A DNA stretch of 64,000 nucleotides, from positions 24,248 to 88,247 of the forward strand of contig WRAX01000005.1 of NCBI GenBank assembly GCA_009779935.1, written 5' to 3'. Both the position numbers and the translations under genes were made by a program. Positions 6,982-52,988 of the stretch are shown here, piece by piece. The notes under the pieces were generated by a model that did no database searches, had not been told where the DNA came from, and saw only the letters and a program-made list of their open reading frames with translations. This DNA is from Defluviitaleaceae bacterium. GTDB lineage: Bacteria; Bacillota; Clostridia; Lachnospirales; WRAX01. Each line of letters begins with the position of its first letter. Within the stretch, counting starts at the first letter, position 1.

Positions 6982-8339
6982 TGCCCATGGATGCTTATTT
7001 ACAAAAAATGGCACAGGATATTTCCAACCGCCAGTATAATGCAGGACTTAAAAAGGCGCAGGTGGGGGATTTAAGCGGGGCGGTTGCCATGCTGCAACTT
7101 AGCCTGCAAACCAATAAAAAAAATACCTATGCCCGCAATTTGCTGGGGCTTTGCCATTATGCCACCGGGCGCATTGGTTTTGCCATGGGGGAATGGGAAA
7201 CCAGTTGCCGCCATCAGCCCGAGGGTAATTTGGCAAAAACTTACCTGGAAAATGTTAGGGGCGACTTTCAAAATTTAGAGAAATATGGCGAGGCAACTAA
7301 GGGTTACAACGAAGCCCTAGCGTTTTTTAGCGATGGCGATGAGGATTTGGCAGTTATCCGCTTAAAGCGGGCTGTGGAGATTTTACCCCGTTTTGTGGAT
7401 GCCATGAACTTGCTTGCACTTTATTATCTGAAAGAACAGGACAAAACCAAAGCCGCCGCCATGGCGGAGCGGGTGCTGGAAGTGGATAAGGGCAACGAAA
7501 CTGCAAAACAGTATTATTTTGCCATTTTTCAAAAGCATTACGGGGAAAAGCCTGCAAGAAGCCAGAAATTAGAGAGCAGGAGCCAAATGAAGGCAGAAAA
7601 GCCCGAGGCGGCACCTGCAAAGCGCAACCCATTGGCGGTACGCAACCAAAAAGTTTTTACCAAAGCATCACCTGTGTCCGGGATTGTTTCTGCTATTATT
7701 GGCATGGTGGCAATGTTTTTGTTTATGCAGACGTTGATTTTACCGGGAATGCTTGCAGAGCGGGATGATGAAATTGCCGCACTGCACACCCAAATAACCC
7801 AGCAACAGCATGACCATGAGCAAACCGCCGCAACACATGCCGACATTTTGCTTGAAACACAGACACAGATAAGCGGCCTTGACAGGGAAATTTTGGACTA
7901 CCAAGACGAGGTGGAAAGGCTACAAAACCAGGTTGCTGTGGGCAATGCCCTGCATCTTTTGCGTGGGGGGCAACCCGCTACCGCTTTGGCACAATTGGAG
8001 AATGTGGACAACACACAGCTGGATGAAGTTACCTTGGCGTTTTACGAAGAAATACGCCAAACAGCCCCGCCCTTGGCGGAACAGGCCTACCACAGCCAAG
8101 CCGTTGCGTTTTTTAACGCCGGCAACCGTGTAGATGCCCGTGTGGCTTGGGAAAATGCAGCCGGTCACAGCCTGCCCGGCAGCAATATCGGTGGAGATAT
8201 TTTGTATTGGCTTGGCCGCATTGCGGAGTTGGATGGCAACCCCGCCTTGGCATTGCAATACTATGAAACCGCACTTGACAGCTTCCCAACCTTCAGCCGC
8301 CGCTGGAATGCCCAAAGCCGCCGTAATGCTTTGTCATAA
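6981..8339 (+). CDS. TPR-repeat protein with one central transmembrane helix
   Basis: TPR-like repeats at both ends (e.g. ARNLLGLCHYATGR, LYWLGRIAELDGNPALALQYYETAL); hydrophobic segment IVSAIIGMVAMFLFMQTLILPGM; RBS AAGGAG 6973-6978. Confidence 0.7.
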   Translation: MPMDAYLQKMAQDISNRQYNAGLKKAQVGDLSGAVAMLQLSLQTNKKNTYARNLLGLCHYATGRIGFAMGEWETSCRHQPEGNLAKTYLENVRGDFQNLEKYGEATKGYNEALAFFSDGDEDLAVIRLKRAVEILPRFVDAMNLLALYYLKEQDKTKAAAMAERVLEVDKGNETAKQYYFAIFQKHYGEKPARSQKLESRSQMKAEKPEAAPAKRNPLAVRNQKVFTKASPVSGIVSAIIGMVAMFLFMQTLILPGMLAERDDEIAALHTQITQQQHDHEQTAATHADILLETQTQISGLDREILDYQDEVERLQNQVAVGNALHLLRGGQPATALAQLENVDNTQLDEVTLAFYEEIRQTAPPLAEQAYHSQAVAFFNAGNRVDARVAWENAAGHSLPGSNIGGDILYWLGRIAELDGNPALALQYYETALDSFPTFSRRWNAQSRRNALS

Positions 8340-8446
8340 ATATTGCGCAGACTGACTGGTGAATGAAAAAGTTTTCAAAATTTGCAGACAAATAATAATA
8401 GATGGCGTATATATAAGCAACACAACAAAATTTTGGAGGTAAAATT

Positions 8447-8794
8447 ATGAACAAGTCAATTTTTGGGCTGGATGAGAGATGGGCGGCGTTTTTGGCATAT
8501 TTCTTCACATTTATCGGTGGCATTGTGGTGCTGGTTTTGGAGAAGGAAAACAGATTTGTGCGCTTTGCCGCATTGCAGTCAACAGTATTTTTTCTGGTAA
8601 TTTTGGTGGTTAGCTTGGGATTGAGCTTATTATCCAATATTTGGTTTATCGGTTGGATTTTTGGCATTGTGCGGTGGGCTGTGGGCGTTGCAGGTTTTGC
8701 TGCTTGGCTATATCTTCTCATCACCGCTGCCAGCAACCGCGCAGTAAAAATCCCCATCATCGGGGATATCTGCTGGGAGCAGGTGCATAAGTAA
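8447..8794 (+). CDS. small integral membrane protein (resembles DUF4870 family from memory)
   Basis: 115 aa, 3 hydrophobic helices; N-terminal WAAFLAYFFTFIGGIVVLVLEKENRFVRFAALQS pattern. Confidence 0.6.
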   Translation: MNKSIFGLDERWAAFLAYFFTFIGGIVVLVLEKENRFVRFAALQSTVFFLVILVVSLGLSLLSNIWFIGWIFGIVRWAVGVAGFAAWLYLLITAASNRAVKIPIIGDICWEQVHK

Positions 8795-33994: not shown

Positions 33995-34917
33995 ATGAAA
34001 ATGTACATTGGTAAAATGGTTAAGAAGTTGCGCTCGGAAATGGGCATGAATCAAGAAGAATTAGCAGGACGGCTTTTTATGTCAAACAAGAGGCTTTCAC
34101 GTATTGAAACCGATAAGGCGAAGGTGGATGTTTGGCAAGCCATAAAAATATTAGAACTTGCCGGTCAATCTTTTGAAGATTTTTGGTTGATGCCCTTGGA
34201 TTCTTCTGATTATGACGGATACTTGATTTATCGAAATTTAAGAAAGAGTTTGCGTGATAATAACAATGCTGAAGCGGAAAGTTTTTTGGAGCAATTCAAG
34301 AAAAGTCCAATATCCAAAGAACCTTTTGCCCAGCAAACCATAGCATGGGCAGAAATTAGGCTAAACAACAATTTAAGCCATGAGAAGCCATAAAAAAATT
34401 ATATGAGGCATTGCGTATGTCAAACCCAGAGTTTGATGAATCCAAGATAGCCGAATACCGCTTACAACACCAAGAAATACGAATACTGATGAGCATCGCA
34501 GTGAGAAGTAACAAAATCGGTGACAAGGATAAAGCGATATACATAACGGAAGCCCTAATTAATAACAGGGAAAATCTCCGAACTTCGGAGGATGATAAAG
34601 CAAGCTTCCTGCCTGCGCTTTTGTTCAATCTGTCTAATTATCTTGGTCAAGCTGGTAAGATAAGAGAATCCTTGCAAGCTTGTGACAAAGGCTTAGAAAT
34701 TTGCCGTGAGTATAATCGCTTTGATCTTACACCAGTATTGCTACATAATAAGGCTACTAATCAACGCATGTTAGGAGAAGAAGAACGCATGTACAGAACC
34801 CATCTAATAAGAGCATATCATTCCGCAAATGCCATGGGTCAATTTGATGTGGCCGAAGAGGTCAAAAAAGATGCCGAAGAAAGCTTCGGCATCAACATCA
34901 TGAAGTTTTGGGATTAA
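33995..34917 (+). pseudogene. XRE-HTH + TPR regulator (RNPP-like architecture) split by a frame change
   Basis: HTH part (MKMYIGKMVKKLRSEMGMNQEELA...) stops at 34391-34393; the TPR part is open in the -1 frame from 34384 (EAIKKLYEALRMSNPEF...); together about 300 aa. Confidence 0.55.
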
Positions 34918-35460: not shown

Positions 35461-35544
35461 GACTTTTGACCAAGTTTAATTTCGCTTTTTTCACCACACT
35501 ACATGGATTTTTATCATCAAAACGAAAGTGAAGGGGGGGTGCAA

Positions 35545-37137
35545 ATGTTAAAAATTTTAAAAATAATACTAAAAGAGCCGTCATCTAAGATAATTTTGGC
35601 ACTTTATCCTTTAATCGCTTTGCTGTCGGGTATTTTGCTAGTATATAGCAATGATATGCTCAGAAATGTTTTCAACAACCACATAATGCTATTAGAGTTT
35701 AACAACTTTTTATATAGCACCCTGTTTGTAGTTGGACTATTTGTTTCATTATTCCTTTTAAGGGTTGTGAACTCATATATTAAAGAGAAACTTCATCATA
35801 CAGGTGCGAATAATTTAATTGAGCACTACACAAACAAACTACTAAAAGCAGACTATTCATACTATCACAAAAAAGAAGCACCAGCAATTTGGGATAAGTT
35901 AGAAAGGTCTACTATTGGTACAGGGAATTTCTTTGGGTCGCTCATAAGTTCTATTAGTACAATGATAAGTTTTGTTTTTTATGCAATTGTTATATTTAGA
36001 ATAAATTTATTTGCAGGATTGATAACAATGATAGCTATTCCTATTTATTTCTTTCTTACTGTCGGATTTAATAAAAATTTCATGTCCTTGCAGATGGAGC
36101 TGGCTAATAGCATGGGGCAACTGGCTGTGGTGGGTCAAGAACCTCTCGAAAATGTGGTGAACGTAAAAACAAAAAATGCATATGGTTTTTTTGTGAATCG
36201 AATAATGAAGATACAAAGAAAAATATCCAAACTGTTTCGTAAGTTCAATGTTTTGTCTGAATATCATAATGGCATAACGGGTCTTGTGTCTGTCGTTGTA
36301 CCCATCTTGGTATTATTTGCTACATTGCAGGTTTCGGACACATTTACAACAGATATGGGGACAGTGCTGATACTTTATATTAACATACCGCTGTTTTTAA
36401 GTGGATTTACAAGCATTTACAAGAAATATATTATGTACAAAACCCACAGACATTTCATAAACGGTCTCCTAGAATTTGACGATATGCCCATAGAACATAG
36501 CGGGGAGATAGAAATAAATGACTTTGAAAACCTAGAAGTAAAAGGGGTTAAGGTGCGCTTTGACGATACACGAATTATCAGTATTCCTGATTTCGTTGTG
36601 AAAAAAGGAGAAAGAGTAATGATATTTGGGGAGAGCGGAATAGGCAAATCAACCATCTTCAACATTATAGTTGGCATTCATACAGAATACGAGGGCGATA
36701 TAATAATTAACGGTATTAATTTGCGAAATATCAGCACCTATTCCTTGCGTAATGTTTTTGGTATCGTTTTACAATCTGTCAATATTTTCTCCATGTCACT
36801 GGAAGACAATATCTTGTTAGGCATTCCCAATGACAATTTGAATGAATCAGTTAGCCTTGCCAACCTTAAAGAACAAATGGATTTTAAGGTCGACCAGGAA
36901 CTAAATAACAAAGTTGTGTCGGGTGGCGAAAAATCGCGTGTTGGGTTAGCTCAGACCCTAGCTCGCAATACCCAAGTGTTGATGATAGACGAAACGTTTT
37001 CCAGTATAGATGAAGGAATGGAAGAGCGTATAGTTAAGGGGCTTTTTGAAATGCATCCACACAAAACCTTTATATGTATCAGCCATCGCAGTTCAAGCCA
37101 GACTTATTTTGATAAATTCGTGGACTTCAATTTATGA
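35545..37137 (+). CDS. ABC exporter, fused TMD-NBD half transporter
   Basis: ATG 35545 after RBS GAAGGGGGGG; 5-6 TM then Walker A GESGIGKST, signature VSGGEKSRVGLA, Walker B VLMIDETFSSID; no N-terminal C39 peptidase domain. Confidence 0.85.
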   Translation: MLKILKIILKEPSSKIILALYPLIALLSGILLVYSNDMLRNVFNNHIMLLEFNNFLYSTLFVVGLFVSLFLLRVVNSYIKEKLHHTGANNLIEHYTNKLLKADYSYYHKKEAPAIWDKLERSTIGTGNFFGSLISSISTMISFVFYAIVIFRINLFAGLITMIAIPIYFFLTVGFNKNFMSLQMELANSMGQLAVVGQEPLENVVNVKTKNAYGFFVNRIMKIQRKISKLFRKFNVLSEYHNGITGLVSVVVPILVLFATLQVSDTFTTDMGTVLILYINIPLFLSGFTSIYKKYIMYKTHRHFINGLLEFDDMPIEHSGEIEINDFENLEVKGVKVRFDDTRIISIPDFVVKKGERVMIFGESGIGKSTIFNIIVGIHTEYEGDIIINGINLRNISTYSLRNVFGIVLQSVNIFSMSLEDNILLGIPNDNLNESVSLANLKEQMDFKVDQELNNKVVSGGEKSRVGLAQTLARNTQVLMIDETFSSIDEGMEERIVKGLFEMHPHKTFICISHRSSSQTYFDKFVDFNL

Positions 37138-37140
37138 TTA

Positions 37141-37800
37141 GAACCCACTTTCAATAAAAGTCCTGTTTGTAGTGGGTGGCCTGCAGGTGCTTGCGAGTAA
37201 CTCAGAACCCGTTTTCAATAAATCCCCAATCCTGCCGATATACAATGATAAACAGGATGTGAAAACATATGAAATATCGCACCAAATACCCAATGACCTT
37301 ACCGCCAAGCAATGGAGCTCCATAAAACACTTATTCGAGAAAGGAAATCGTGGCAGTCATTTCCGTACACATAGCAAGCGAAAACTTGTTGATGCCGCAC
37401 TTTACCTTAACAAGGCTGGATGCCATTGGAGGCAGTTGCCAAAAGATTTTCCTAAGTGGCAGACTGTGCATTCATTCTGCTCCCGAAGCGTAAAGACAGC
37501 ATGCGCTGCACAGTTTAGGGGATTTGTTGGGGGGTAAGAAGGTTGAAGGTCGTCTGCTGCTCCACATAAAAGTTCATCCTGCCAACATCCATGATGCCAT
37601 TGCCGGTGGCAGGGTTGTTGCCGAAACTAAGACCAAATACCCCACAGTCAAGGGTATTGTTGGTGGTGCCGGTTTTCGTGGCACTTTCAAGAAAGCCCCA
37701 GAAGCGATCTTAGTGAATTTGATTTTGGCTTTGGAGTTTTCGGCAAAAAGAACCCCCCACAAATCGGCGGCCCCGGCGGCGGCAACTGGACTATAATACC
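37141..37800 (+). mobile_element. IS5-family element remnant with internal deletion (right copy)
   Basis: N-terminal domain LTAKQWSSIKHLF...LYLNKAGCHWRQLPKDFPKWQTVHSF joins directly to RSVKTA; later KKVEGRLLLHIKVHPANIHD in another frame; two GAACCCnnTTTCAATAAA copies at 37141 and 37205. Confidence 0.7.
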
Positions 37801-37979: not shown

Positions 37980-39341
37980 ATGAAAACAAAAATCCCCAAA
38001 ACCATCACAATCCTAACTCTACTAACACTAACCATGGTCTTCTATGCCTGTGGGGGTACCGAAGTAGAGTGTGGATACAACGACGACGATATCGGCAATT
38101 ATAATGATTATAAAGCCAAACATGACTATGCGTACATAAGCATACAACCCACAGAAGACGAACTTAGACATCAAGTATCACAACTTTTGATTGAAGACCT
38201 GGAATTACTTTACAAAGATATGCGTTCAAACATTATGGCTCTTTCAAATGCAGTGTATAGACGAACCCAGCACGAAGTAGGGTTTGGCATTGATATTTGG
38301 AGAAGCATGAGGCGGATTATTGAAAATCTTGAAACTGGAAGCGTGCAGTTTGGTGCAGGTGTGACGGATTTTGACGAGATGCTTGCGGCCGGCTCGCAGC
38401 ATATAGTTAGTCGATTGAATTTTTAGGTCATAACACATCTGGCCTACTGCATCTTGGGGCATCCACCGAGGGCTTTGCGGGAATTGGGTGGGATGACCAC
38501 TATGGGTCCATACTCGTCCGTCCGTTAAGAACATATCAATCCATTCAAGAAATTGATACTTCATTCAACCCCTAGGCATGGCACCAGCAAAAGCTTAATA
38601 AGTGGCAATATTGCGTATTTAAGAATAGAATCTGCTTTAAATATAGATTTAGACAGAAATAATTTAATGCAATTTTATGAAGAAATACAGAATTATAGCC
38701 ATCTCATTATTGATATAAGAAATCATATGGGAGGGCATTATTTTCATTTTGCTGACGTGGTAATGAGTCCACTTATAGAAAGTGCCGTTCATGCAACGTA
38801 TTATCAATTTTTTACAGAAGGAGAGCACCGTGCTTGGCAAATGGCAAATGTGGATGCATTGTGGGACGAATTCTATGAAATGGGTTGGCGCACTATGGAA
38901 GTTACGAATTACGAAGCTTCCGTATTTGTATCAGAAAATAACATGATATATTTTAACGAAAGTGATTTGGGCTATCTATCCTATGCCACAAGATTCCGAT
39001 ACACAATTCATCCTTCGTACACAAATTTTCCTTTCAGAGGCAAGGTGTGGTTGTTGATTGACGGCGCACAATCAGCAGGAGTAGGGGCTGCCATATATGC
39101 CGAAACATCAGGATTTGCAACAACGGTGGGCAGACCAACAGGTGGCGTTACACATGCGGAACGAACTTATTTGAGATTGCCAAACTCTGGGGTGTATGTA
39201 CATGTAGATGTAGGTTATATCGTAGATGCCAATGGCCGCTCTGTGGTAGAATTTGGATGGCCACCCCAAATACCCAGCCGCCCGGGCTTGGATGCTTTGC
39301 AGACCGTACTTGCTTTGATACAGGAGGGCTATGGGCAATAA
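37980..39341 (+). pseudogene. S41-like peptidase lipoprotein, disrupted by frame changes
   Basis: Lipobox MVFYAC; three pieces in frames 0/2/0 (37980-38426, 38426-38575, 38553-39341); C-terminal piece has IIDIRNHMGG and aligns with the intact paralogue at 47308. Confidence 0.6.
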
Positions 39342-39547: not shown

Positions 39548-40954
39548 GTGGCTTTATTGCATAACAATTTAATAATAAATAAAAACAGCGAAAGATTTAC
39601 ACCTTTTCTAATCAACCTACTGTCCGGAAGAAGGCGATTGCTTAAAGATGATGAATTTCAACTCATAAAATCCATGGCATTAAAACAGGACTTGGCGGAC
39701 TATACTGAGGATGAGTTAATTTTATTCGGAAACTTAAAGGCGGAGAAGCAACTTTTGGAAGAGAATGAACGCATAATGATTGAAGAGAAGATGAATGATA
39801 TAGGTTATTTTCATACAAACACGGACATTCCTGATGAAATTGAATTTTCAATTCACTTAACGTGGAAGTGCAATATGAGTTGCTCCTACTGCATTGCCGG
39901 CTCGTATGTTGGCAATGATTTGACCATAACGTCAGAGCATGTGGATAGCATCTATAACTTCTATCTAAATTTTATGAGCGAAGCTGAGCTTCAAGCAAAG
40001 GTTAAGAGCATTGGAATATCTGGCGGCGAACCCTTGCTGAACTCTGAAACTGTTGGTGCCCTGAATTACATAAATAAAAAATGGCCAAATGCTAAGTTAG
40101 GAATACTTACAAATGGTGTGAATTTGTTGAAATTCTATCAGCACTTACCTTTGAGAAATATCGAGGAAGTTCATGTTTCTTTAGATGGCTTAAAAGAGAC
40201 TCATCTGGATAGGTGATACAGTAACGAAAAAGTTTCACCAGATATCTACGATAATATAATAGGTGGCATAAAAAAACTTTTAGAAGATGAAATTTCAGTA
40301 ACGATTAAAAGCTGCATTGATAAAAATAATTATAGAGAACACCAAGAATTTAAGAGCTTCTTAAAAGAAGAGGGTATTACCACATCATCTTTTTGTACAC
40401 ATCAGAATTCTCATATAATGGACTTTAATAATCATTTAAACATAGATGAAAACTCCAATAGCGTAGAGGACATACGAAGAATAAGGGAATTTGTCTTTCC
40501 TGACCTTGCCTACATGCCACCTTTTTCTGACCTTGCTATTTTATATCAGATGATGAGTCGAATAAGTGACGAACCTTTCATGCCAAAGCGCATGAGGTGC
40601 AGTAGCGGCTTCTTATCAAAATACGCATTTGCACCAAATGGAAAAATATATTTTTGCACCTGCAACACTGCGAGTTCAGGAATGATAGGAGAATATTATC
40701 ATCAAATGTCAATCGATAACTCTGTGATATCTGGGCTTGCGCACAGGAGTGTGATGCAAAGTGATGAGTGTAAAAAATGCCCATATAAATTTGTTTGTTT
40801 GGGTTGTTGTCCGAAAAACTCAGAAGGACAGCTTGCAGATATGACAAAGATGACCTGTGGTGTATTTGGGTTTCCTGAAATTTTAGATAATATTGAGTTT
40901 GACTACCGCACAATTGCAAATGTCAAAAATAACTCAGATAGAAAGGTGGTTTGA
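39548..40954 (+). pseudogene. radical SAM/SPASM peptide maturase 1, single in-frame TGA
   Basis: CNMSCSYC (CxxxCxxC), GGEPLL, C-terminal SPASM Cys pattern (YFCTC...ECKKCPYKFVCLGCCP); ORFs 39548-40216 and 40418-40954 share a frame that is open across 40217-40417. Confidence 0.8.
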
Positions 40955-42572: not shown

Positions 42573-42886
42573 ACCAAGAAAATATGGGGTTGACCAACTC
42601 ATGCAAGCACTTACAAAGGAGGAAAAAACATGAAATCAAGCGATCAAATGACATCTATAATCGACTTAATGTGGGAGCCAGAAGAAACAGTGGAACTATT
42701 GTCCCCTACAATGACGCAGCAGTGTATGGATATGAGTTGTTATCCTGGCATTACACTCCCTTGGCTGTGTATGTCATGTTTTCCAATGAGCAGTAATCGA
42801 AATTGGATTTGTTAGTTAAAAGCTGAGCAAAGAAGCTGCTGCGTTACAAATACATCAGCGGTTGGTCAACCCTATATTTTCTTGGT
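42573..42886. repeat. 26-bp inverted repeat pair flanking precursor gene 1
   Basis: ACCAAGAAAATATGGGGTTGACCAAC 42573-42598 and GTTGGTCAACCCTATATTTTCTTGGT 42861-42886; 25/26 complementary. Confidence 0.85.
42630..42815 (+). CDS. Cys-rich precursor peptide 1 (61 aa)
   Basis: RBS AAAGGAGG; MKSSDQMTSIIDLMWEPEETVELLSPTMTQQCMDMSCYPGITLPWLCMSCFPMSSNRNWIC. Confidence 0.7.
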   Translation: MKSSDQMTSIIDLMWEPEETVELLSPTMTQQCMDMSCYPGITLPWLCMSCFPMSSNRNWIC

Positions 42887-42901: not shown

Positions 42902-43117
42902 ATGGAAAAGAGTTTAGATACAGCAAACTCAATAACATCTATCATCGACTTGATTTGGGAGGTAGATGACGTAGCAGAAGTGGTTGTGCCAATGATGAAC
43001 AAGGCTTGCATAGGCAATAGTTGCAGCATGAATACAAGGTCTCCACAAAATCCTCCCGCTTCCACCTTGGGCGGGTCCTCAAGGTGCATTAAATCCACAA
43101 AAAGGAGTGGCGTTCAC
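42902..43117 (+). CDS. Cys-rich precursor peptide 2, no stop codon before the next gene
   Basis: RBS GGAGG; MEKSLDTANSITSIIDLIWEVDDVAEVVVPMMNKACIGNSCSMNTRSPQNPPASTLGGSSRCIKSTKRSGVH runs in frame into the lipoprotein ATG at 43118. Confidence 0.6.
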
Positions 43118-44539: not shown

Positions 44540-44604
44540 ACTAAGGGATTCTAAGAGGAGTATAGGGTTAGCTAAATTTTACTTACACTAAGGAGGAATT
44601 GAGT

Positions 44605-44793
44605 ATGGACTTAAAAAAGATTGAAATTTTGATTACACCGGTCATCGACCTTATATGGGAAGTTGATATTATTGAAAACACAGAATTTTTGCCAACCAAC
44701 ATGGTTGTAACTTGCATGGATATTAGTTGTGGTGGTTTTGGTCTTGTTTGTGGGGGTTCCTGGAAAACCCCCATGTGTCGCCCGTTAGGTTAA
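44605..44793 (+). CDS. Cys-rich precursor peptide 3 (62 aa)
   Basis: RBS AAGGAGG 8 nt upstream; MDLKKIEILITPVIDLIWEVDIIENTEFLPTNMVVTCMDISCGGFGLVCGGSWKTPMCRPLG. Confidence 0.7.
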   Translation: MDLKKIEILITPVIDLIWEVDIIENTEFLPTNMVVTCMDISCGGFGLVCGGSWKTPMCRPLG

Positions 44794-44885: not shown

Positions 44886-46260
44886 ATGAAGCTTATAAGG
44901 CATGTAATTCCAGTGGACATAAACAGTGAAGAAAAGCTGATGATTAACTCCTTAAACGGTATTATTGATAAAATTAGTGTACCTGTTTATGAAATCTTTC
45001 GAAAGTGGAGAGGGGTTGAGGAGATAGTTCCCGAATGCGAGGTGGAGGTCGCCTTATTTGAAAGCCTCAAAATGCGTGGGTATCTATCAAATAGCTCAAA
45101 AGATGAGGATGTTGTGAAAGAGAAACTTGTAGCTCGCTTACGGGAAATAAGCACCAAGCAAAGAGAGGCGTGCAGGAGCATCACCTTTATCCCTTCATAT
45201 AACTGCAACTTCCGATGCCCTTATTGCTTTGAAGGAGAAAACACTCTTAAAAAGGGAAATTATGACACCAGATCAAGTGGATGCCGCATTAGAATTGGCT
45301 GGTGAAAACTTGGAAAGCGTGGGGTTTTTTGGTGGAGAGCCTTTGTTGGCATCCAATAAAAAAATATTAGAATATATTATATCAAAAACCAAAGGGAAAA
45401 CTTTTAGTATCACCACCAATGGATATCACTTGGAGGAGTTTTTTGAAATCTTGTCACCACTAAAATTTTCTGAAATCTTGGTTACACTGGATGGAGGAGA
45501 GGACACTCACAATAGTCGTAGGTTTTTGGTGGGCGGCAAACCGACATATAGCAAAATTTTGAAGGGTATTGAAAAGTGCCTGTCAAATGGCATGCCCATA
45601 TGCATTAGGATGAATCTGGAAAGTAGTAATCTGGAAGAAGGTCAACTCTTGCAACAAGAACTTATGAATAGATTCCAAAAGCATGGAGGATTGGTTTCAT
45701 TTGAAATGGGAACCATTTTTGGAATACCCGAAGAAGACAAAGTAAACATTCTCACCCAGCTATATAAAACAGATGCTATATGTTCGCCAGAAGAAAAGCG
45801 AAAAAGAAATAGCATGGTGGGTAGATTTAATCCCATAATAAATAGCATGACCATAGGCACAAAGCTACGACCAACATACTCATTTTGCTCCGCTCACATA
45901 AGCAGCTTCATTGTTGATCCCTATGGAATGATATATGCCTGTCTCCCATCAGTCGGCAAACCCACCCTATCCATCGGCACATACTACCCCAACATCGAAT
46001 TTAAAGAAAAAAGCATTTACACCCGCAATATAGAAACAATCTCCGAATGCAGAGAGTGTGTCTATTCATTACTTTGTGGCGGGGGTTGCCCTTTGGGAGT
46101 TATGAGATGTGAAGATGATATAATGAAACCGGAGTGCTTCTCCATTAAAAACCAAGTGCATAACATATTGCCCAGGTTTTACAACATTAACGAAGATGCT
46201 AAAAATAAAAACAAAGAAACCAAAAACCAAAACCAGCCAGCAAAAGCTTGTTCTTTGTGA
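44886..46260 (+). pseudogene. radical SAM/SPASM peptide maturase 2, 1-nt frameshift
   Basis: CNFRCPYC lies in the frame of ORF 44817-45305; GGEPLL and the SPASM pattern (ECRECVYSLLCGGGCP) lie in the +1 frame of ORF 45229-46260; switch within 45236-45260. Confidence 0.8.
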
Positions 46261-46285: not shown

Positions 46286-47266
46286 ATGATGACAAACGCC
46301 CTAATATTAGCTGACATTGAAGGTATCATCGGTGTTAATGAAACATTTGGTGATAATGCCGGTGAATTGTTCACACAAGAAGTGGAGCTATGTATCAATG
46401 TCCTGTTGGAAAACGGCATCCACAAAATCACTGTTTGCGATGCCCATAACAAGGGGGACATGATTTTACCCAGAATTACCGAGGGGCGTGATAATGTCAA
46501 GCTGGTTTCGCAAGTCCGCAGTGTTTGTTTTGCAGAAAAGTATGACTTTGCAATAATGGTTGGATATCATGGAATGGAAGGCAGCCCCGGCATTTGGCCC
46601 CACACATACCGCTATGATATTAAGCAGACTTCTATTTTCGATAAAAGATTAGGAAAAAACATTCCCATTGGCGAGGTGGAGATTGGTGCCAGATGGCTGG
46701 GCTTTCATGGTGTGCCGGTTATTTTTGTATCTGGTGATAGAGAGGCGGCTTACGAAGCCAATCAATTCAACCCATACAGACAAGCTTCTTGTATAAGAAC
46801 ACTCCTTCAAACCGAAGAAATAAAGATTGAAGTTTTGCGTGATAAATTAGTGCAAGATCTCAAATCATCTTTAAAATTGGACTGGGATTTATGCTTGTCC
46901 TGTGATAATAGTCCCATTCTGGTTGAGTTTTACCACTCTGAAACCGCTGATGCCTTAGTGGCAAAGGGATATACCAAATTCATCAACGTAGATGGCAGCG
47001 AGGGCATCACATTCAAAAGCTGTTCTGAACTTGTTAGCGAAATCCATCACATAGCCGGCCTCTTAAATCAAATCGGATTTGAGGTGGAAACCGCCAACAT
47101 CGCTTTCTTAAAAGAGGTACGTGAATTAGCTAAAAATCTTGATAAAGATGCAGTTGCAAATTCGGAGGCCGGGCCACTACTTAGCACCAGCCTTACCCTG
47201 TTGGACAAGGTGGCTCGTGATAAAGTTATGGTGATTTTGAGGAGTATGGTGAATGGAAGTGTATAA
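46286..47266 (+). CDS. M55-family D-aminopeptidase (DppA-like)
   Basis: LADIEGIIG, VCDAHNKG, MVGYHGMEGSPGIWPHT and IGEVEIGARWLGFHGVPVIFVSGD align with B. subtilis DppA motifs as I recall them. Confidence 0.8.
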   Translation: MMTNALILADIEGIIGVNETFGDNAGELFTQEVELCINVLLENGIHKITVCDAHNKGDMILPRITEGRDNVKLVSQVRSVCFAEKYDFAIMVGYHGMEGSPGIWPHTYRYDIKQTSIFDKRLGKNIPIGEVEIGARWLGFHGVPVIFVSGDREAAYEANQFNPYRQASCIRTLLQTEEIKIEVLRDKLVQDLKSSLKLDWDLCLSCDNSPILVEFYHSETADALVAKGYTKFINVDGSEGITFKSCSELVSEIHHIAGLLNQIGFEVETANIAFLKEVRELAKNLDKDAVANSEAGPLLSTSLTLLDKVARDKVMVILRSMVNGSV

Positions 47267-47307: not shown

Positions 47308-48726
47308 ATGACAAAAAACAAAAACAAAAACATCAACCCAATAGCCCGCACCGGCCTCTTAGTTCTGGCGATGGTTCTTTTTCTATTAATACCCACAAGT
47401 TGCGGCAGCCAAAACAATGAAGATGAAACCCGTTTTGTCTTAGAGTCCGACTGCCCTTATCTTTACGACTTCCATTACTTAATACGGCTTATGGAGGATA
47501 CATTTCCTCACTTTGGTGTAGTGTATAGAAATTTTGGAGTGGATGTGAGACAACTGGCAGATGAAGCCATGGAGCGCATCGCAAACCATCCTGGTATGGA
47601 CGACAATATTCTTTTTGATGAAATTGCAGACCTTTTTATTCCACTTTTACCAGTTGTTCATGCGCAGCCCTTATTCTACCAGACCTTTCCACTCTGGAAA
47701 TACAGATTTGGAGGAGCTGGCGTAGGGCAACTAATAAGCGAAGGTAGTGCATTCAATGCAAATACTTTTAACAATGTGCGTTCAATAGAATTTTATGAAC
47801 GCCAAAGGCAAGCCGGATGGGACATGACACCACAAACGGAAGAAGCGTTCGCTTTGCGACCTGCTATACACACTGACCTTGATAATTTTCCTGTACAACC
47901 CGCATGGAATCGAATAGCAGCCACCTATATAATCGAAGAAGGCAGAATTGCTTATATGAACATACCTACTTTTATGCATCATGGCGCAGGCGGAATAGAA
48001 AGGGGAAGTTTGTTTAATTTCTACACAGAAATACAGGATTACGAGCACCTTATTATAGACATTAGAAATAATGGAGGTGGATATACCTTTTTTTGGGAAA
48101 ATAATATCATGCTACCACTATCGAACAATGCGCCCGTTGTACCAATATATAACTTTTTCCCCCAAAGCGAACGTGGCTTAAAGTTTGCACAAATTTTTGC
48201 TGATGACCACTACCAGAAAGGTATAGGAGCAGATTTGGTGACCTCAGAGTCATTTTCTGCCAATTATGCATATCCTATATCTATATCAGAGTTTTTAAAT
48301 GATAGGCAATTTCCATACCTAAACCAATCCGACCTACAATACTTAGGATATGTGGTCCCACTTACCCAAAGTGTAAGAAATCTAAACCCCATGTGGTATG
48401 TGCCGGAAATACCTTTCCATGGTCAAATATGGCTTTTGATAAATCCCGTAAACGCTTCATCTGCCAGCATGTTTGCCCGCCACGCCAAAGATTCTGGTTT
48501 TGCCACTTTGGTGGGGGAGCAAACAGGTGGACATTTTGGTGCTGGGACACTTCGTATTTTCTTCCCCCTACCCAACACAGGCATTATTGTAACTTGGGAT
48601 GTAGGCTACAAAACCGACCAATACGGAAGATCATGGGAAGAATTTAGAGTAATGCCCCACCACCAAAACATGCCTGGTATGGATGCGCTTGAAACTGTGC
48701 TTTTTCTTATTAATGAAGGGTATTGA
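47308..48726 (+). CDS. S41-like peptidase lipoprotein (intact copy)
   Basis: Signal/lipobox LLIPTSC; IIDIRNNGGGY, NASSASMFA, GEQTGG motifs of C-terminal processing peptidases. Confidence 0.75.
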   Translation: MTKNKNKNINPIARTGLLVLAMVLFLLIPTSCGSQNNEDETRFVLESDCPYLYDFHYLIRLMEDTFPHFGVVYRNFGVDVRQLADEAMERIANHPGMDDNILFDEIADLFIPLLPVVHAQPLFYQTFPLWKYRFGGAGVGQLISEGSAFNANTFNNVRSIEFYERQRQAGWDMTPQTEEAFALRPAIHTDLDNFPVQPAWNRIAATYIIEEGRIAYMNIPTFMHHGAGGIERGSLFNFYTEIQDYEHLIIDIRNNGGGYTFFWENNIMLPLSNNAPVVPIYNFFPQSERGLKFAQIFADDHYQKGIGADLVTSESFSANYAYPISISEFLNDRQFPYLNQSDLQYLGYVVPLTQSVRNLNPMWYVPEIPFHGQIWLLINPVNASSASMFARHAKDSGFATLVGEQTGGHFGAGTLRIFFPLPNTGIIVTWDVGYKTDQYGRSWEEFRVMPHHQNMPGMDALETVLFLINEGY

Positions 48727-48880: not shown

Positions 48881-50707
48881 ATGAAACCCCTAACCCTCTG
48901 CAAACCCTATCTACTGCAACATAAATTAAAACTAACCCTATACATAACAATAACCCTATTAGCCACTGCCATATCCATCCTAACCCCCTTCATCATAGGT
49001 AACTTCCTTGATCACCTAATCGAAGGGGGTGATGTGGGGGCTATTTTGCGTTTTTGTGCAATATTTGGTGGGTTGGGGCTTTTGCGTATATTCAAAAACT
49101 ACATAACATCCCTTATATACGTTAGGATGCAAACCCAGATGAGTTACAACTTTCACCATGATATCACAAAACACATCCAAAGCCTTTCACTCTCCTACAC
49201 CAACAATCAAGACAGCACCTATCTAAACCAACGCATAAATAGTGACACAGGCAGCCTGATTGTATTCTGCATAACCATCCTTAACAACGTACTGGTAAAC
49301 CTAATTATGATTATTGCACCCTTTATCATACTGCTAACCATGAACTGGTTTATTACGGTTTTATTGGCCGGCTTTCTTTTGTTATATGCCGTCTTATATA
49401 CGGCCTTCAAAAAACCCATTTACAATGCAGGGTTTCGCTTAAAAGAAGCGCAGGGTAAGTTTTTCTCCACCCTTTTTGAACAATTAAAACACATCAAACT
49501 CATTAAAACAAACTCCATACAGCCCGAAATTAGCCGTAGGACTGATAGTGGATTTGTAAGATTTAAGGCGGCAGCTGTTCACAACCAAAAAGTAAGTTAT
49601 GTGTACTCCGGTATGGATGGATTTATATCCACACTCGCACAGATCGCCTTATTTGTGGTTGGTGGCTTGCAGGTGCTGTCCGGTAATTTCACCATAGGTA
49701 TGTTTACCATCTTTACCAGTTACTTTACCATGATTTTGGGTTCCAGTAGATATTTCTTTGGCCTTGGGGCTTCTTATCAGCACACCCTTGTCGCTTATGA
49801 TCGGGTCAAGGAAATATTGAACCTTAAACCCGAGGGTGGGGGTAGAAAGATAATTGACAGTGTTAGCAAGATACAAGCAACTGACCTAAGTTTTTCTTAT
49901 GCGGTTGGAGATACGAGCCACAGTTTAAGTCAAGACCAAAAAGAAAGGCGAGAAGGAAACAACCGGAAAAAAGATGACCCTCACGAGGGCATTAACTCAC
50001 ATAATATCAAAAATCATAATCCAGCCCTAAATTTCAACGAAACAGGCAGCACTACCAAAGCGAATCCTAAGGTGAACGACATCATCGAAACAAAGCGAAA
50101 AAGGGTTCTTGAAGGACTTAGTATAGAACTAACCAAGGGTAAAATTTATACCCTATCCGGCTCAAATGGCTCGGGCAAGTCCACGCTTATCAGTTTAATG
50201 ATGGGTATGTATGCTGATGAATATGATGGCCGTATAACCTATGACGGCACAGATATTAAAGACATAGACATGATTGCCGCAAGAAGAAGCCTTATTGGAT
50301 TTGCAGAGCAAGAACCTACACTGATAAAAGATTCTATTTTGTTTAACCTTTGTTTTAATGAGTCGCTCGATTCTCTTTGTTCATCAAACCAACGCATCAA
50401 CAATCTGGACAAGCATATGCAAACCCTTGGGATGAATGATTTTATTGATAAAAACGGATTGCATTTCCCGCTAAACGAAAGCAATACCAACACCTCCGGT
50501 GGAGAGAAGCAAAAAATATCCATCTTAAAGGTACTGTTAAAAGACCCACCTGTTATGATTTTTGATGAGCCTACATCTGCACTTGATTCTGATGCCACCG
50601 AAAGGTTTATGGGATATTTGCAGGGTATTAAAAGTAATAAGATTATTGTTATAGTTACGCATGATGGGGTTGTGGAGGAGATGTGTGATGAGAGGGTTTG
50701 TTTGTAA
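48881..50707 (+). CDS. ABC exporter (TMD-NBD) with a hydrophilic insertion at the start of the NBD
   Basis: 6 TM; Walker A GSNGSGKST, signature TSGGEKQKISILK, Walker B VMIFDEPTSALD; no C39 domain. Confidence 0.85.
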   Translation: MKPLTLCKPYLLQHKLKLTLYITITLLATAISILTPFIIGNFLDHLIEGGDVGAILRFCAIFGGLGLLRIFKNYITSLIYVRMQTQMSYNFHHDITKHIQSLSLSYTNNQDSTYLNQRINSDTGSLIVFCITILNNVLVNLIMIIAPFIILLTMNWFITVLLAGFLLLYAVLYTAFKKPIYNAGFRLKEAQGKFFSTLFEQLKHIKLIKTNSIQPEISRRTDSGFVRFKAAAVHNQKVSYVYSGMDGFISTLAQIALFVVGGLQVLSGNFTIGMFTIFTSYFTMILGSSRYFFGLGASYQHTLVAYDRVKEILNLKPEGGGRKIIDSVSKIQATDLSFSYAVGDTSHSLSQDQKERREGNNRKKDDPHEGINSHNIKNHNPALNFNETGSTTKANPKVNDIIETKRKRVLEGLSIELTKGKIYTLSGSNGSGKSTLISLMMGMYADEYDGRITYDGTDIKDIDMIAARRSLIGFAEQEPTLIKDSILFNLCFNESLDSLCSSNQRINNLDKHMQTLGMNDFIDKNGLHFPLNESNTNTSGGEKQKISILKVLLKDPPVMIFDEPTSALDSDATERFMGYLQGIKSNKIIVIVTHDGVVEEMCDERVCL

Positions 50708-51321: not shown

Positions 51322-51376
51322 GCAACTTCTGATACTGTTTGCTATTAACCGCAAACAGTATCAGAAGTTGCTTTTC
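51322..51376 (+). terminator. strong terminator at the right edge of the island
   Basis: Perfect 21-bp arms GCAACTTCTGATACTGTTTGC/GCAAACAGTATCAGAAGTTGC, 8-nt loop, then TTTTC. Confidence 0.7.
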
Positions 51377-51661: not shown

Positions 51662-52372
51662 ATGTCCAACGAAATGCCTATTTCAGTATTGATTAGAGGT
51701 GACACCCACATTCTTTACTTTGATGATGGCAAAATTGACGATGACGGCAATATAGAAACGGCCTATATACGGGTCACCCAAGGTGTTCTTTGTGCAGGCG
51801 ACAGCGAAGTTAAGGTTTCTGTTAATGACTATATTTCTAAGGCAGATTGGATATTACTTAGAGAATATAGACAAGCGGCTCAAAACGACTTTCTTAGGCG
51901 TGATACCTTTATTGATGTCAGCGAGGAAGTTAAAATGATTGCTTCGGGATATATTGAGAATAATGGGCTTGCCCTTGAGGGTGTGGAGGATTTGCGTGGT
52001 GCTGGGCTCATCCTTAATTATCGCCCGAGCAAAATCTTTCCTTGCGATTGCGACGATGCTGGATTTTTTGGAAGAAGGGTTCATCTTACCGGCTTTACGC
52101 ATACCCAAAAAACACCGTGGTTTTACAGCGGGATATCAGACAGGATAACCCTTTTTGTTTGCAACAGGGGCAAGGATGATGTGATGATTGGACTTGAAAG
52201 AAGTCCTGATTCGGCAAGTATCATTAAAGATGCTCAGGAGATATGCGTTGGCCCGGGGCAAACCGCAGAAATTACTCCTTACAAGTTTTCGCAGTTTATA
52301 AGGCTTACAGCAAGCTCTGAAAAAAGAAGGATAAACTGCGAGGTATGGCATCAAGCGCAGCTAAAAGTCTGA
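51662..52372 (+). CDS. hypothetical protein, no signal peptide
   Basis: RBS AAAGGAGG; 236 aa; C-terminal about 70 aa similar to the C-terminus of the next ORF. Confidence 0.6.
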   Translation: MSNEMPISVLIRGDTHILYFDDGKIDDDGNIETAYIRVTQGVLCAGDSEVKVSVNDYISKADWILLREYRQAAQNDFLRRDTFIDVSEEVKMIASGYIENNGLALEGVEDLRGAGLILNYRPSKIFPCDCDDAGFFGRRVHLTGFTHTQKTPWFYSGISDRITLFVCNRGKDDVMIGLERSPDSASIIKDAQEICVGPGQTAEITPYKFSQFIRLTASSEKRRINCEVWHQAQLKV

Positions 52373-52463
52373 TAATTTGTATAACGCCCCATTTTGAGAC
52401 AAGAACCCTTTTGCATATACAAGCATAGTATGTACTACAGTCAAGAAAAAGGCTGAAAACACA

Positions 52464-52988
52464 ATGCAAAAGGAGGTGAAAAAGATAAATTCACTTGTTT
52501 TTAACACAACTGCCGAAGAGCTGCGTACCAGTGTTTATGGCTATAACCAAGGCACAAGCACGTTGCAGCTGTTGCAGTTGAATAGCGATGGAGAATTGCT
52601 TGTTTCGGGAGATTTTAGCCTGTCAAGTAACGTAACAATCGCAAACACGCTGCTGACTGTGTTGGTGTCCGGCAATCAATTCACAGCAAACACTCAAACG
52701 CTGGATGGTGTAACATCAACAGGCATTGCTCTTGCTGCAACGGATATTTCGCAATTGAAAACAGCGACCATGTTTGTTGACAACACAGATGCCAATCCGA
52801 TTACTGTAACTTTGCAATTAAGCCCTGATGGAACAACGTTTTTTGACGACCCCCATTATACGGATGTTGTAGTAGACGGAACAACTTCTACTATTATGGT
52901 AGTCGGAATCTTTGCACAGTATGCACAAATCGAATATGATGCGGGAGCAGGGGCTACATTCGCTGTGTATTACAATGGGCAAGCGTAG
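52464..52988 (+). CDS. hypothetical Ser/Thr-rich beta-type protein
   Basis: 174 aa; TMFVDNTDANPITVTLQLSPDGTTFFDD... segment parallels TLFVCNRGKDDVMIGLERSPDSASIIKD... of the previous ORF (I recall a DUF6385-like family, unverified). Confidence 0.6.
   Translation: MQKEVKKINSLVFNTTAEELRTSVYGYNQGTSTLQLLQLNSDGELLVSGDFSLSSNVTIANTLLTVLVSGNQFTANTQTLDGVTSTGIALAATDISQLKTATMFVDNTDANPITVTLQLSPDGTTFFDDPHYTDVVVDGTTSTIMVVGIFAQYAQIEYDAGAGATFAVYYNGQA

Follow-up and report, generated by a model that had tools for sequence, protein, structure and literature searches.

The open reading frame at 46286-47266 of the window (the whole stretch of 64,000 nucleotides of Defluviitaleaceae bacterium contig WRAX01000005.1 that was analysed) encodes, as judged from profile matches and a structural model, a genuine peptidase of family M55 with the DppA fold and a complete active site. 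The enzyme belongs to a subfamily that is a signature gene of a family of RiPP clusters built around radical-SAM/SPASM maturases. Its identity, the conservation of its active site and its gene linkage are direct observations. For its role, we give a probability slightly above one half (about 0.55) to the reading that this RiPP family, whose precursors share an IIDLIW leader, uses it as a dedicated peptidase for (leader) processing in the cytoplasm. The cluster in the window is itself decaying.

The M55 protein and its subfamily

The gene lies on the forward strand, starts with ATG and appears intact in the ORF list of the window (326 aa), with a GGAG Shine-Dalgarno sequence 8 nt 5' of the start codon. 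Its product matches the Pfam profile PF04951 (Peptidase_M55) over residues 6-237 with an E-value of 5.6e-26 and 92 bits, for a cut-off of 25. The preliminary description had read the ORF as intact and as carrying the motifs DIEG, DAHN, GYHG and GEVE. These are found at residues 10-13, 52-55, 93-96 and 129-132 respectively, and the reading is confirmed by Pfam, by a phmmer alignment to the B. subtilis DppA structure 1HI9 and by the model. DppA is the sole solved relative detected by sequence (phmmer E-value 1.7e-12). In this alignment D10, E12, H54, H95 and E130 pair with DppA D8, E10, H60, H104 and E133, which we take to be the ligands of the two zinc ions (Remaut et al. 2001). Together with H106, the five residues are invariant in 44 close homologues and in 71 wider-family representatives, the latter among the proteins found by a profile search of 1.84 billion representatives that returned 1601 representatives in all, with 99 proteins below an E-value of 1e-30 and 450 below 1e-10.

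The AlphaFold model, obtained with 44 homologues in the alignment, has a pLDDT of 92.3, and 1HI9 is its only significant match in the PDB (E-value 8.8e-16, TM scores 0.66/0.77, 280 aligned columns, 20% identity). The Pfam threshold, the metal-ligand positions and the DppA fold thus all place the protein in peptidase family M55. No signal peptide was found in the window protein, which is predicted to be a cytoplasmic, binuclear-metal member of a distinct M55 subfamily. DppA itself is a D-stereospecific aminopeptidase that forms a self-compartmentalising D5 decamer (PMC2651629). Against the NCBIfam model of the DppA equivalog (NF058634) the window protein aligns over residues 13-173 only and scores 67.8 bits, below the cut-off of 430.

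Helices at residues 246-324 extend past the DppA core at the C-terminus, and across the subfamily this extension amounts to roughly 45-80 additional helical residues relative to DppA. An RRE-like leader-binding domain was considered for this region but is not supported, since the model predicts it to be purely helical and gives no fold match beyond DppA. The subfamily also carries cysteines of its own, two of them invariant (C51 and C169) and three nearly invariant (C168, C203 and C246). DppA is devoid of them and has an Asn at the position of C51. These cysteines may contribute an additional metal or redox site. An identical, MAG-derived protein is present in databases as 'M55 family metallopeptidase [Defluviitaleaceae bacterium]'.

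Organization of the window cluster

The features of the locus are listed below with coordinates, strand and the basis of the assignment.

33995-34911, +: RNPP-type (HTH + RNPP_C) quorum-sensing-like regulator, frameshifted and read in two frames (33995-34384 in frame 2, 34291-34911 in frame 1); tblastn with the L004 regulator, Pfam HTH_19/HTH_3 and RNPP_C
35503-37137, +: ABC exporter copy 1 (ABC_membrane + ABC_tran, no peptidase domain); Pfam
37172-37537, +: IS4/IS5-family transposase fragment (DUF4096); Pfam, E-value 3.7e-16
37980-39341, +: S41 lipoprotein copy 1, in two pieces (ORFs 37980-38426 and 38553-39341), the second with a Pfam S41 match
39548-40954, +: radical-SAM/SPASM maturase 1, with an in-frame TGA at 40214-40216; colinear with L006 maturase 1 (45%), SPASM TIGR04085
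40951-42530, +: lipoprotein of about 490 aa with a HEVVH motif (MA-clan-like metalloprotease family), frameshifted
42630-42815, +: precursor peptide B, MKSSDQMTSIIDLMWEPEE...CMDMSCYPGITLPWLCMSCFPMSSNRNWIC; leader-motif scan
42902-43114, +: precursor-like peptide C (MEKSLD..SIIDLIWEVDD..), reading in frame into the next lipoprotein gene with no stop codon
43115-44539, +: MA-like lipoprotein copy 2, full length, with AHAVL at the expected HExxH site (motif lost)
44599-44793, +: precursor peptide A, ..TPVIDLIWEVD...CMDISCGGFGLVCGGSWKTPMCRPLG; leader-motif scan
44886-46260, +: radical-SAM/SPASM maturase 2, with a 1-nt insertion in the A-run 45249-45253; 68% identity to the intact L004 enzyme, NCBIfam and Pfam
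46286-47266, +: M55 (DppA-family) metallopeptidase, intact; Pfam, phmmer and model
47308-48726, +: S41 peptidase lipoprotein (lipobox LLIPTSC)
48881-50707, +: ABC exporter copy 2, no C39 peptidase domain (the transmembrane domain begins at residue 19)
51323-51370, no strand assigned: perfect hairpin with a 20-bp stem, terminator-like on both strands

The M55 gene therefore does lie between maturase 2 and the S41 lipoprotein, as first described, but maturase 2 is frameshifted. The hairpin is probably the end of the operon; it is located between the exporter and a DUF6385 gene pair (51662-52988). At the other end, the position of the RNPP-type regulator hints at quorum-sensing control, by analogy with streptococcal radical-SAM RiPPs, and an intact orthologue of this regulator precedes the cluster of locus L004. 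The in-frame reading of precursor C into the lipoprotein gene reflects either the loss of a stop codon or an odd fusion. GC content is 0.37-0.42 in window segment 32001-56000 and 0.43-0.50 in its flanks. This low GC content and the IS4/IS5 transposase fragment suggest that the segment is a horizontally acquired island.

Decay of the window cluster

Both maturase genes of the window are disrupted. Removing one A from the run at 45249-45253 of maturase 2 restores the sequence ...CFEGENTLKREIMTPDQVDAAL found in L004, and the TGA of maturase 1 stands where the homologue has an Arg. Other genes are also damaged: the first HEVVH lipoprotein copy and the RNPP-type regulator are frameshifted and S41 copy 1 is split. 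Of the two HEVVH-family lipoproteins, the frameshifted copy has retained the motif and the full-length copy has not. The remainder of the window is composed of long intact ORFs. Three assemblies built by different assemblers share one and the same sequence at the maturase 2 frameshift, although they may derive from the same or related samples, and the TGA of maturase 1 is also present in the one other assembly that spans the site. Since the lesions are identical across assemblies and the rest of the window is intact, they are real and specific to this locus.

Two other explanations of the lesions were considered. An assembly artefact was rejected as the cause of the maturase 2 frameshift because the three assemblies, produced by different assemblers, agree. 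Recoding of the TGA in maturase 1 is unsupported, the Arg of the homologue fitting a CGA-to-TGA mutation.

The cluster is decaying. As both maturases are broken, the M55 gene is probably without a working partner in the source genome, and the window therefore says nothing about function in the source organism. In two other loci (L011/L012 at 7827-8780 and L044/L045 at 1807-2821) it is the M55 gene that is broken into two ORFs, so decay of such clusters is not unique to the window.

Conserved linkage to radical-SAM and exporter genes

A homology search with the M55 protein returned about 50 clusters of relatives of 310-350 aa, with 35-72% identity. The seven homologue contigs inspected first all share one arrangement: a short ORF (47-63 aa), between one and three radical-SAM genes, M55, and an ABC exporter composed of ABC_membrane and ABC_tran without a peptidase (C39) domain. 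The M55 gene often abuts or overlaps the stop codon of the upstream radical-SAM gene, for example in L006 (positions 3189/3190 and 4116/4119). Species-representative genomes and metagenomes were scanned, the metagenomes with the subfamily alignment, and 59 sequences (58 loci and the window) were annotated with HMMs built from the loci. Collapsing these at 90% identity left 37 distinct M55 loci, 30 of which represent the subfamily. Subfamily loci come from termite-gut metagenomes and also from cultured Anaerosalibacter massiliensis ND1 (L014, contig CCEZ01000074.1).

A radical-SAM gene on the same strand and within 3 kb of the M55 gene is present in 24 of the 26 distinct subfamily loci that could be evaluated. 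In L029, one of the two exceptions, it belongs to the same operon but lies 3.2 kb upstream. Peptidase-less ABC exporters are found in 26 of 28 evaluable distinct subfamily loci. Because the M55 gene adjoins radical-SAM genes in essentially all homologous loci, it is part of the locus and not a chance neighbour. The suggestion that it is embedded in a peptide-maturation locus has therefore withstood the comparison in which its absence from homologous loci would have pointed to accidental adjacency. More distant M55 genes (25-39% identity) in five further loci also lie beside radical-SAM and/or ABC exporter genes. The distant group was recovered from a rumen Lachnospiraceae MAG (L017), from the human gut (L052-L054) and from metagenomes of unstated source (L051, L055 and L056). 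The only canonical-type M55 locus with enough flanking sequence to judge, L019, has no radical-SAM neighbours.

Additional peptidase-like genes are less constant. S41 lipoproteins occur in 9 of the 30 subfamily loci, and S41 and/or HExxH lipoproteins accompany about a third of the clusters. The HExxH lipoproteins, uncharacterised proteins of about 500-600 aa, are found in 7 of the 30 loci and show a weak resemblance to Peptidase_MA_2 with no Pfam match above threshold; members outside the window occur in L004 (6777-8249), L026, L029, L036 and L041. Three clusters (L006, L040 and L047) are minimal: they contain only the precursor(s), two maturases, M55 and the ABC exporter, with no other protease. 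Their flanking genes are unrelated, so that M55 is their sole protease. L006 comes from the termite gut, and contig WQVX01000173.1 has the genes of L006 as well. Locus L010 (2321-12770) is a hybrid in which ThiF, YcaO and nitroreductase genes of azoline type accompany three radical-SAM genes, M55 and an ABC exporter.

Precursor peptides

Twenty-two unique precursors share the N-terminal leader (M)EPIIDLIWxxEE, and a precursor of this type is found in each locus with sufficient upstream sequence. Next comes an acidic stretch, and a Pro frequently precedes the first Cys by 5-8 residues. The core contains two to seven Cys, often begins with (A/S)NCGG and often ends with a Cys. The window has three such ORFs (44599-44793, 42630-42815 and the one starting at 42902). 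Locus L041 and two loci of the distant group, L053 and L051, have leader variants such as VVDMIWEAEE, ELIWDE and EIIWDED, respectively. No NCBIfam model matches the precursors above threshold. The precursor of the YcaO hybrid L010, with the leader ILDLLWEVEE, shows a weak, sub-threshold match to an NCBIfam thiazolylpeptide model. With these precursors and with matches to Radical_SAM and TIGR04085 above cut-off, the system has the components of a generic radical-SAM/SPASM RiPP cluster, the maturases of the window itself being disrupted.

Maturases and their probable chemistry

The two window maturases are not simple duplicates. Maturase 1 is orthologous to the first maturase of L006 (45% identity), while maturase 2 is orthologous to the second L006 maturase (56%) and to the single maturase of L004 (68%). 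Along its entire sequence the intact L004 enzyme is colinear with the CefB, Clo7bot, PapB and TIGR04463 maturases, with scores well under all the equivalog cut-offs (113 for a cut-off of 340 with PapB, 75/425 with SCIFF, 114/600 with Clo7bot and 118/600 with CefB). No epimerase family, including the YydG type, occurs among the best 25 of the 50-59 NCBIfam matches obtained with each of four maturase queries. By their nearest relatives, the maturases most likely form Cys-derived (thioether) cross-links.

A sister system was identified in three cultured species, Alkaliphilus transvaalensis, Proteinivorax tanatarense and Tepidimicrobium xylanilyticum, in which the maturase shares 47-50% identity with the intact maturase 2 orthologue of L004. 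Its precursors are 39-41 aa long and read MKMKPIIxxGWNLQD...CCAC (L059 7589-7708, L060 7654-7770 and L061 7582-7707). Both M55 and a maturase-adjacent exporter are absent from these three loci; in the Tepidimicrobium locus, an rSAM-ABC pair lies in divergent orientation at a distance of about 3-5 kb. Since M55 is kept in the L010 hybrid and in clusters with one to three radical-SAM genes but is absent from the sister clade, its presence appears to follow that of the IIDLIW leader and the exporter, not that of the maturase by itself.

Role of the M55 peptidase

For the substrate, the cleavage mode and the order of the steps we propose the following scheme. The RiPP module would consist of a precursor with a leader and a Cys core, one to three radical-SAM/SPASM maturases, M55 and the peptidase-less ABC exporter. 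The maturase would bind the leader and cross-link the core. Inside the cell, M55 would then remove or trim the leader from its N-terminal side. The first cross-link may bring trimming to a halt, in keeping with a chambered DppA-like enzyme, which by analogy could admit an unstructured leader. The product would be exported by the ABC transporter, and in some clusters the S41 and HExxH lipoproteins may complete processing outside the cell. Leader or N-terminal processing is favoured because the exporters have no C39 domain, because the minimal clusters have no other protease, because M55 and the leader are retained while the chemistry varies and because the sister clade has no M55.

Several points weigh against this role. 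DppA acts on very short D-Ala-containing peptides and not on leaders of about 30 residues. The leaders begin with M-E-P, and a simple aminopeptidase could be stopped by an X-Pro bond so close to the N-terminus. In the clusters that have them, about a third, the S41 and/or HExxH lipoproteins could be the true leader peptidases. Moreover, gene linkage indicates involvement in the pathway, not the step concerned.

The preliminary description had instead inferred that the peptide, or an intermediate, may have D-residues at its N-terminus, that the M55 enzyme would then trim or detoxify it, and that the chemistry would be epimerisation, alone or with thioether formation. Radical-SAM enzymes can epimerise residues, and sactionine-type thioethers can give D-configured alpha-carbons. 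The stereospecificity of DppA (PMC2651629), the full conservation of the catalytic residues and the juxtaposition of M55 and radical-SAM genes are all consistent with this idea. However, with about 20% identity and a score so far under the equivalog cut-off, the D-specificity of DppA is not transferable to the subfamily. The maturases are nearest to CefB, Clo7bot, PapB and TIGR04463, the best 25 NCBIfam matches include no epimerase, maturase homologues with 47-50% identity occur in loci without M55, and M55 tracks the leader and exporter even in the YcaO hybrid L010. Given this distance from DppA and the proximity of the maturases to thioether-type families, the claim of D-residues and epimerisation is neither supported nor refuted, and we consider it improbable that the subfamily has kept the D-stereospecificity of DppA and acts on D-residues made by the radical-SAM enzymes, whether epimerised or in alpha-thioether linkage. 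In that case it would be without precedent as a D-specific protease devoted to RiPP maturation, and the presence of M55 would be a genomic marker for ribosomal peptides containing D-residues. With thioether-like maturases and an M55 gene that tracks the leader and exporter, leader or N-terminal processing is the more economical explanation.

M55 might otherwise not be the maturation protease and instead serve to protect the producer, or to clean up, by degrading unmodified or unexported precursor, freed leader or mature peptide left in the cytoplasm. A cytoplasmic enzyme with a DppA-like fold (a chambered decamer in DppA) and tight coupling to the exporter would suit such a function, and where extracellular S41/HExxH lipoproteins are present they could be the real leader peptidases. 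We nevertheless find this assignment doubtful: the minimal clusters encode no further protease that could take off the leader, there is no sign of a distinct immunity logic, and a conserved, operon-coupled gene is not expected for clean-up alone because general cytoplasmic peptidases normally suffice.

The view that an ordinary DppA orthologue, serving the recycling of D-Ala-D-Ala or dipeptides, lies here by accident is suggested by the shared Pfam family but has a negligible probability: it is rejected by the neighbourhood statistics, the linkage being kept in loci from termite gut, rumen, human gut and a cultured Anaerosalibacter, the score falls well short of the cut-off for the DppA equivalog, the gene has no dipeptide importer genes beside it and the canonical-type locus L019 has no radical-SAM neighbours.

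Novelty and significance

Among the sources of new peptide chemistry, radical-SAM RiPP clusters rank high, and in many of them no protease has been assigned to leader removal. The M55 subfamily provides a conserved, cluster-encoded candidate from a peptidase family with no known link to natural products. A full-text search of the literature found no link between M55, PF04951 or DppA and radical-SAM or RiPP systems and no occurrence of the leader motif, and M55 is not mentioned in the RiPP genome-mining papers examined. The initial remark that no described RiPP cluster includes an M55 gene thus agrees with the literature searched. The peptidase subfamily, the maturases and the precursors each lack an NCBIfam model of their own. 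We regard the system as a radical-SAM RiPP type with an unprecedented signature peptidase, and the family as undescribed. It can be searched for with two markers, the leader EPIIDLIWxxEE and the M55 gene, and ranges from termite-gut Defluviitaleaceae to rumen and human-gut Firmicutes and cultured Anaerosalibacter. M55 peptidases, of which B. subtilis DppA is to our knowledge the single characterised member, would thereby gain a second biological context.

Comparison with known systems

DppA (MEROPS M55, 1HI9) and the window enzyme have in common the Pfam family, the fold, the five metal-ligand positions together with His115 (DppA numbering) and a cytoplasmic location. They differ in sequence (about 20% identity), in the C-terminal helices and cysteines proper to the window subfamily and in genetic context: the DppA gene belongs to the dpp dipeptide-import operon, whereas the subfamily is found in a radical-SAM RiPP operon with an exporter.

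The PapB, SCIFF, Clo7bot, CefB and TIGR04463 systems resemble the present family in their leader and Cys core, their CxxxCxxC/SPASM maturase and their ABC exporter. Unlike PapB, SCIFF, Clo7bot and CefB, the window family falls below the equivalog cut-offs, has no match to a precursor model and has an exporter without C39, with M55 instead.

The epipeptide system YydFGHIJ includes the epimerase YydG, the M50 protease YydH and an ABC transporter. It likewise combines a small precursor, a radical-SAM enzyme, a cluster-encoded metalloprotease and an ABC transporter, and the Anaerosalibacter cluster even has a small M50-like gene. However, the cores of the window family contain Cys, the conserved protease is M55 rather than M50 and no YydG-type enzyme is among the best 25 NCBIfam matches of the maturases.

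Metallopeptidases of general type are known to remove RiPP leaders, namely TldD/TldE for microcin B17 and the M1-family AplP-type enzymes for class III lanthipeptides. The concept is similar: a metallopeptidase chews an unstructured leader until the modified core stops it. These enzymes belong to another clan and fold, whereas M55 is both encoded by and specific to its cluster, where by analogy it may play the role proposed here.
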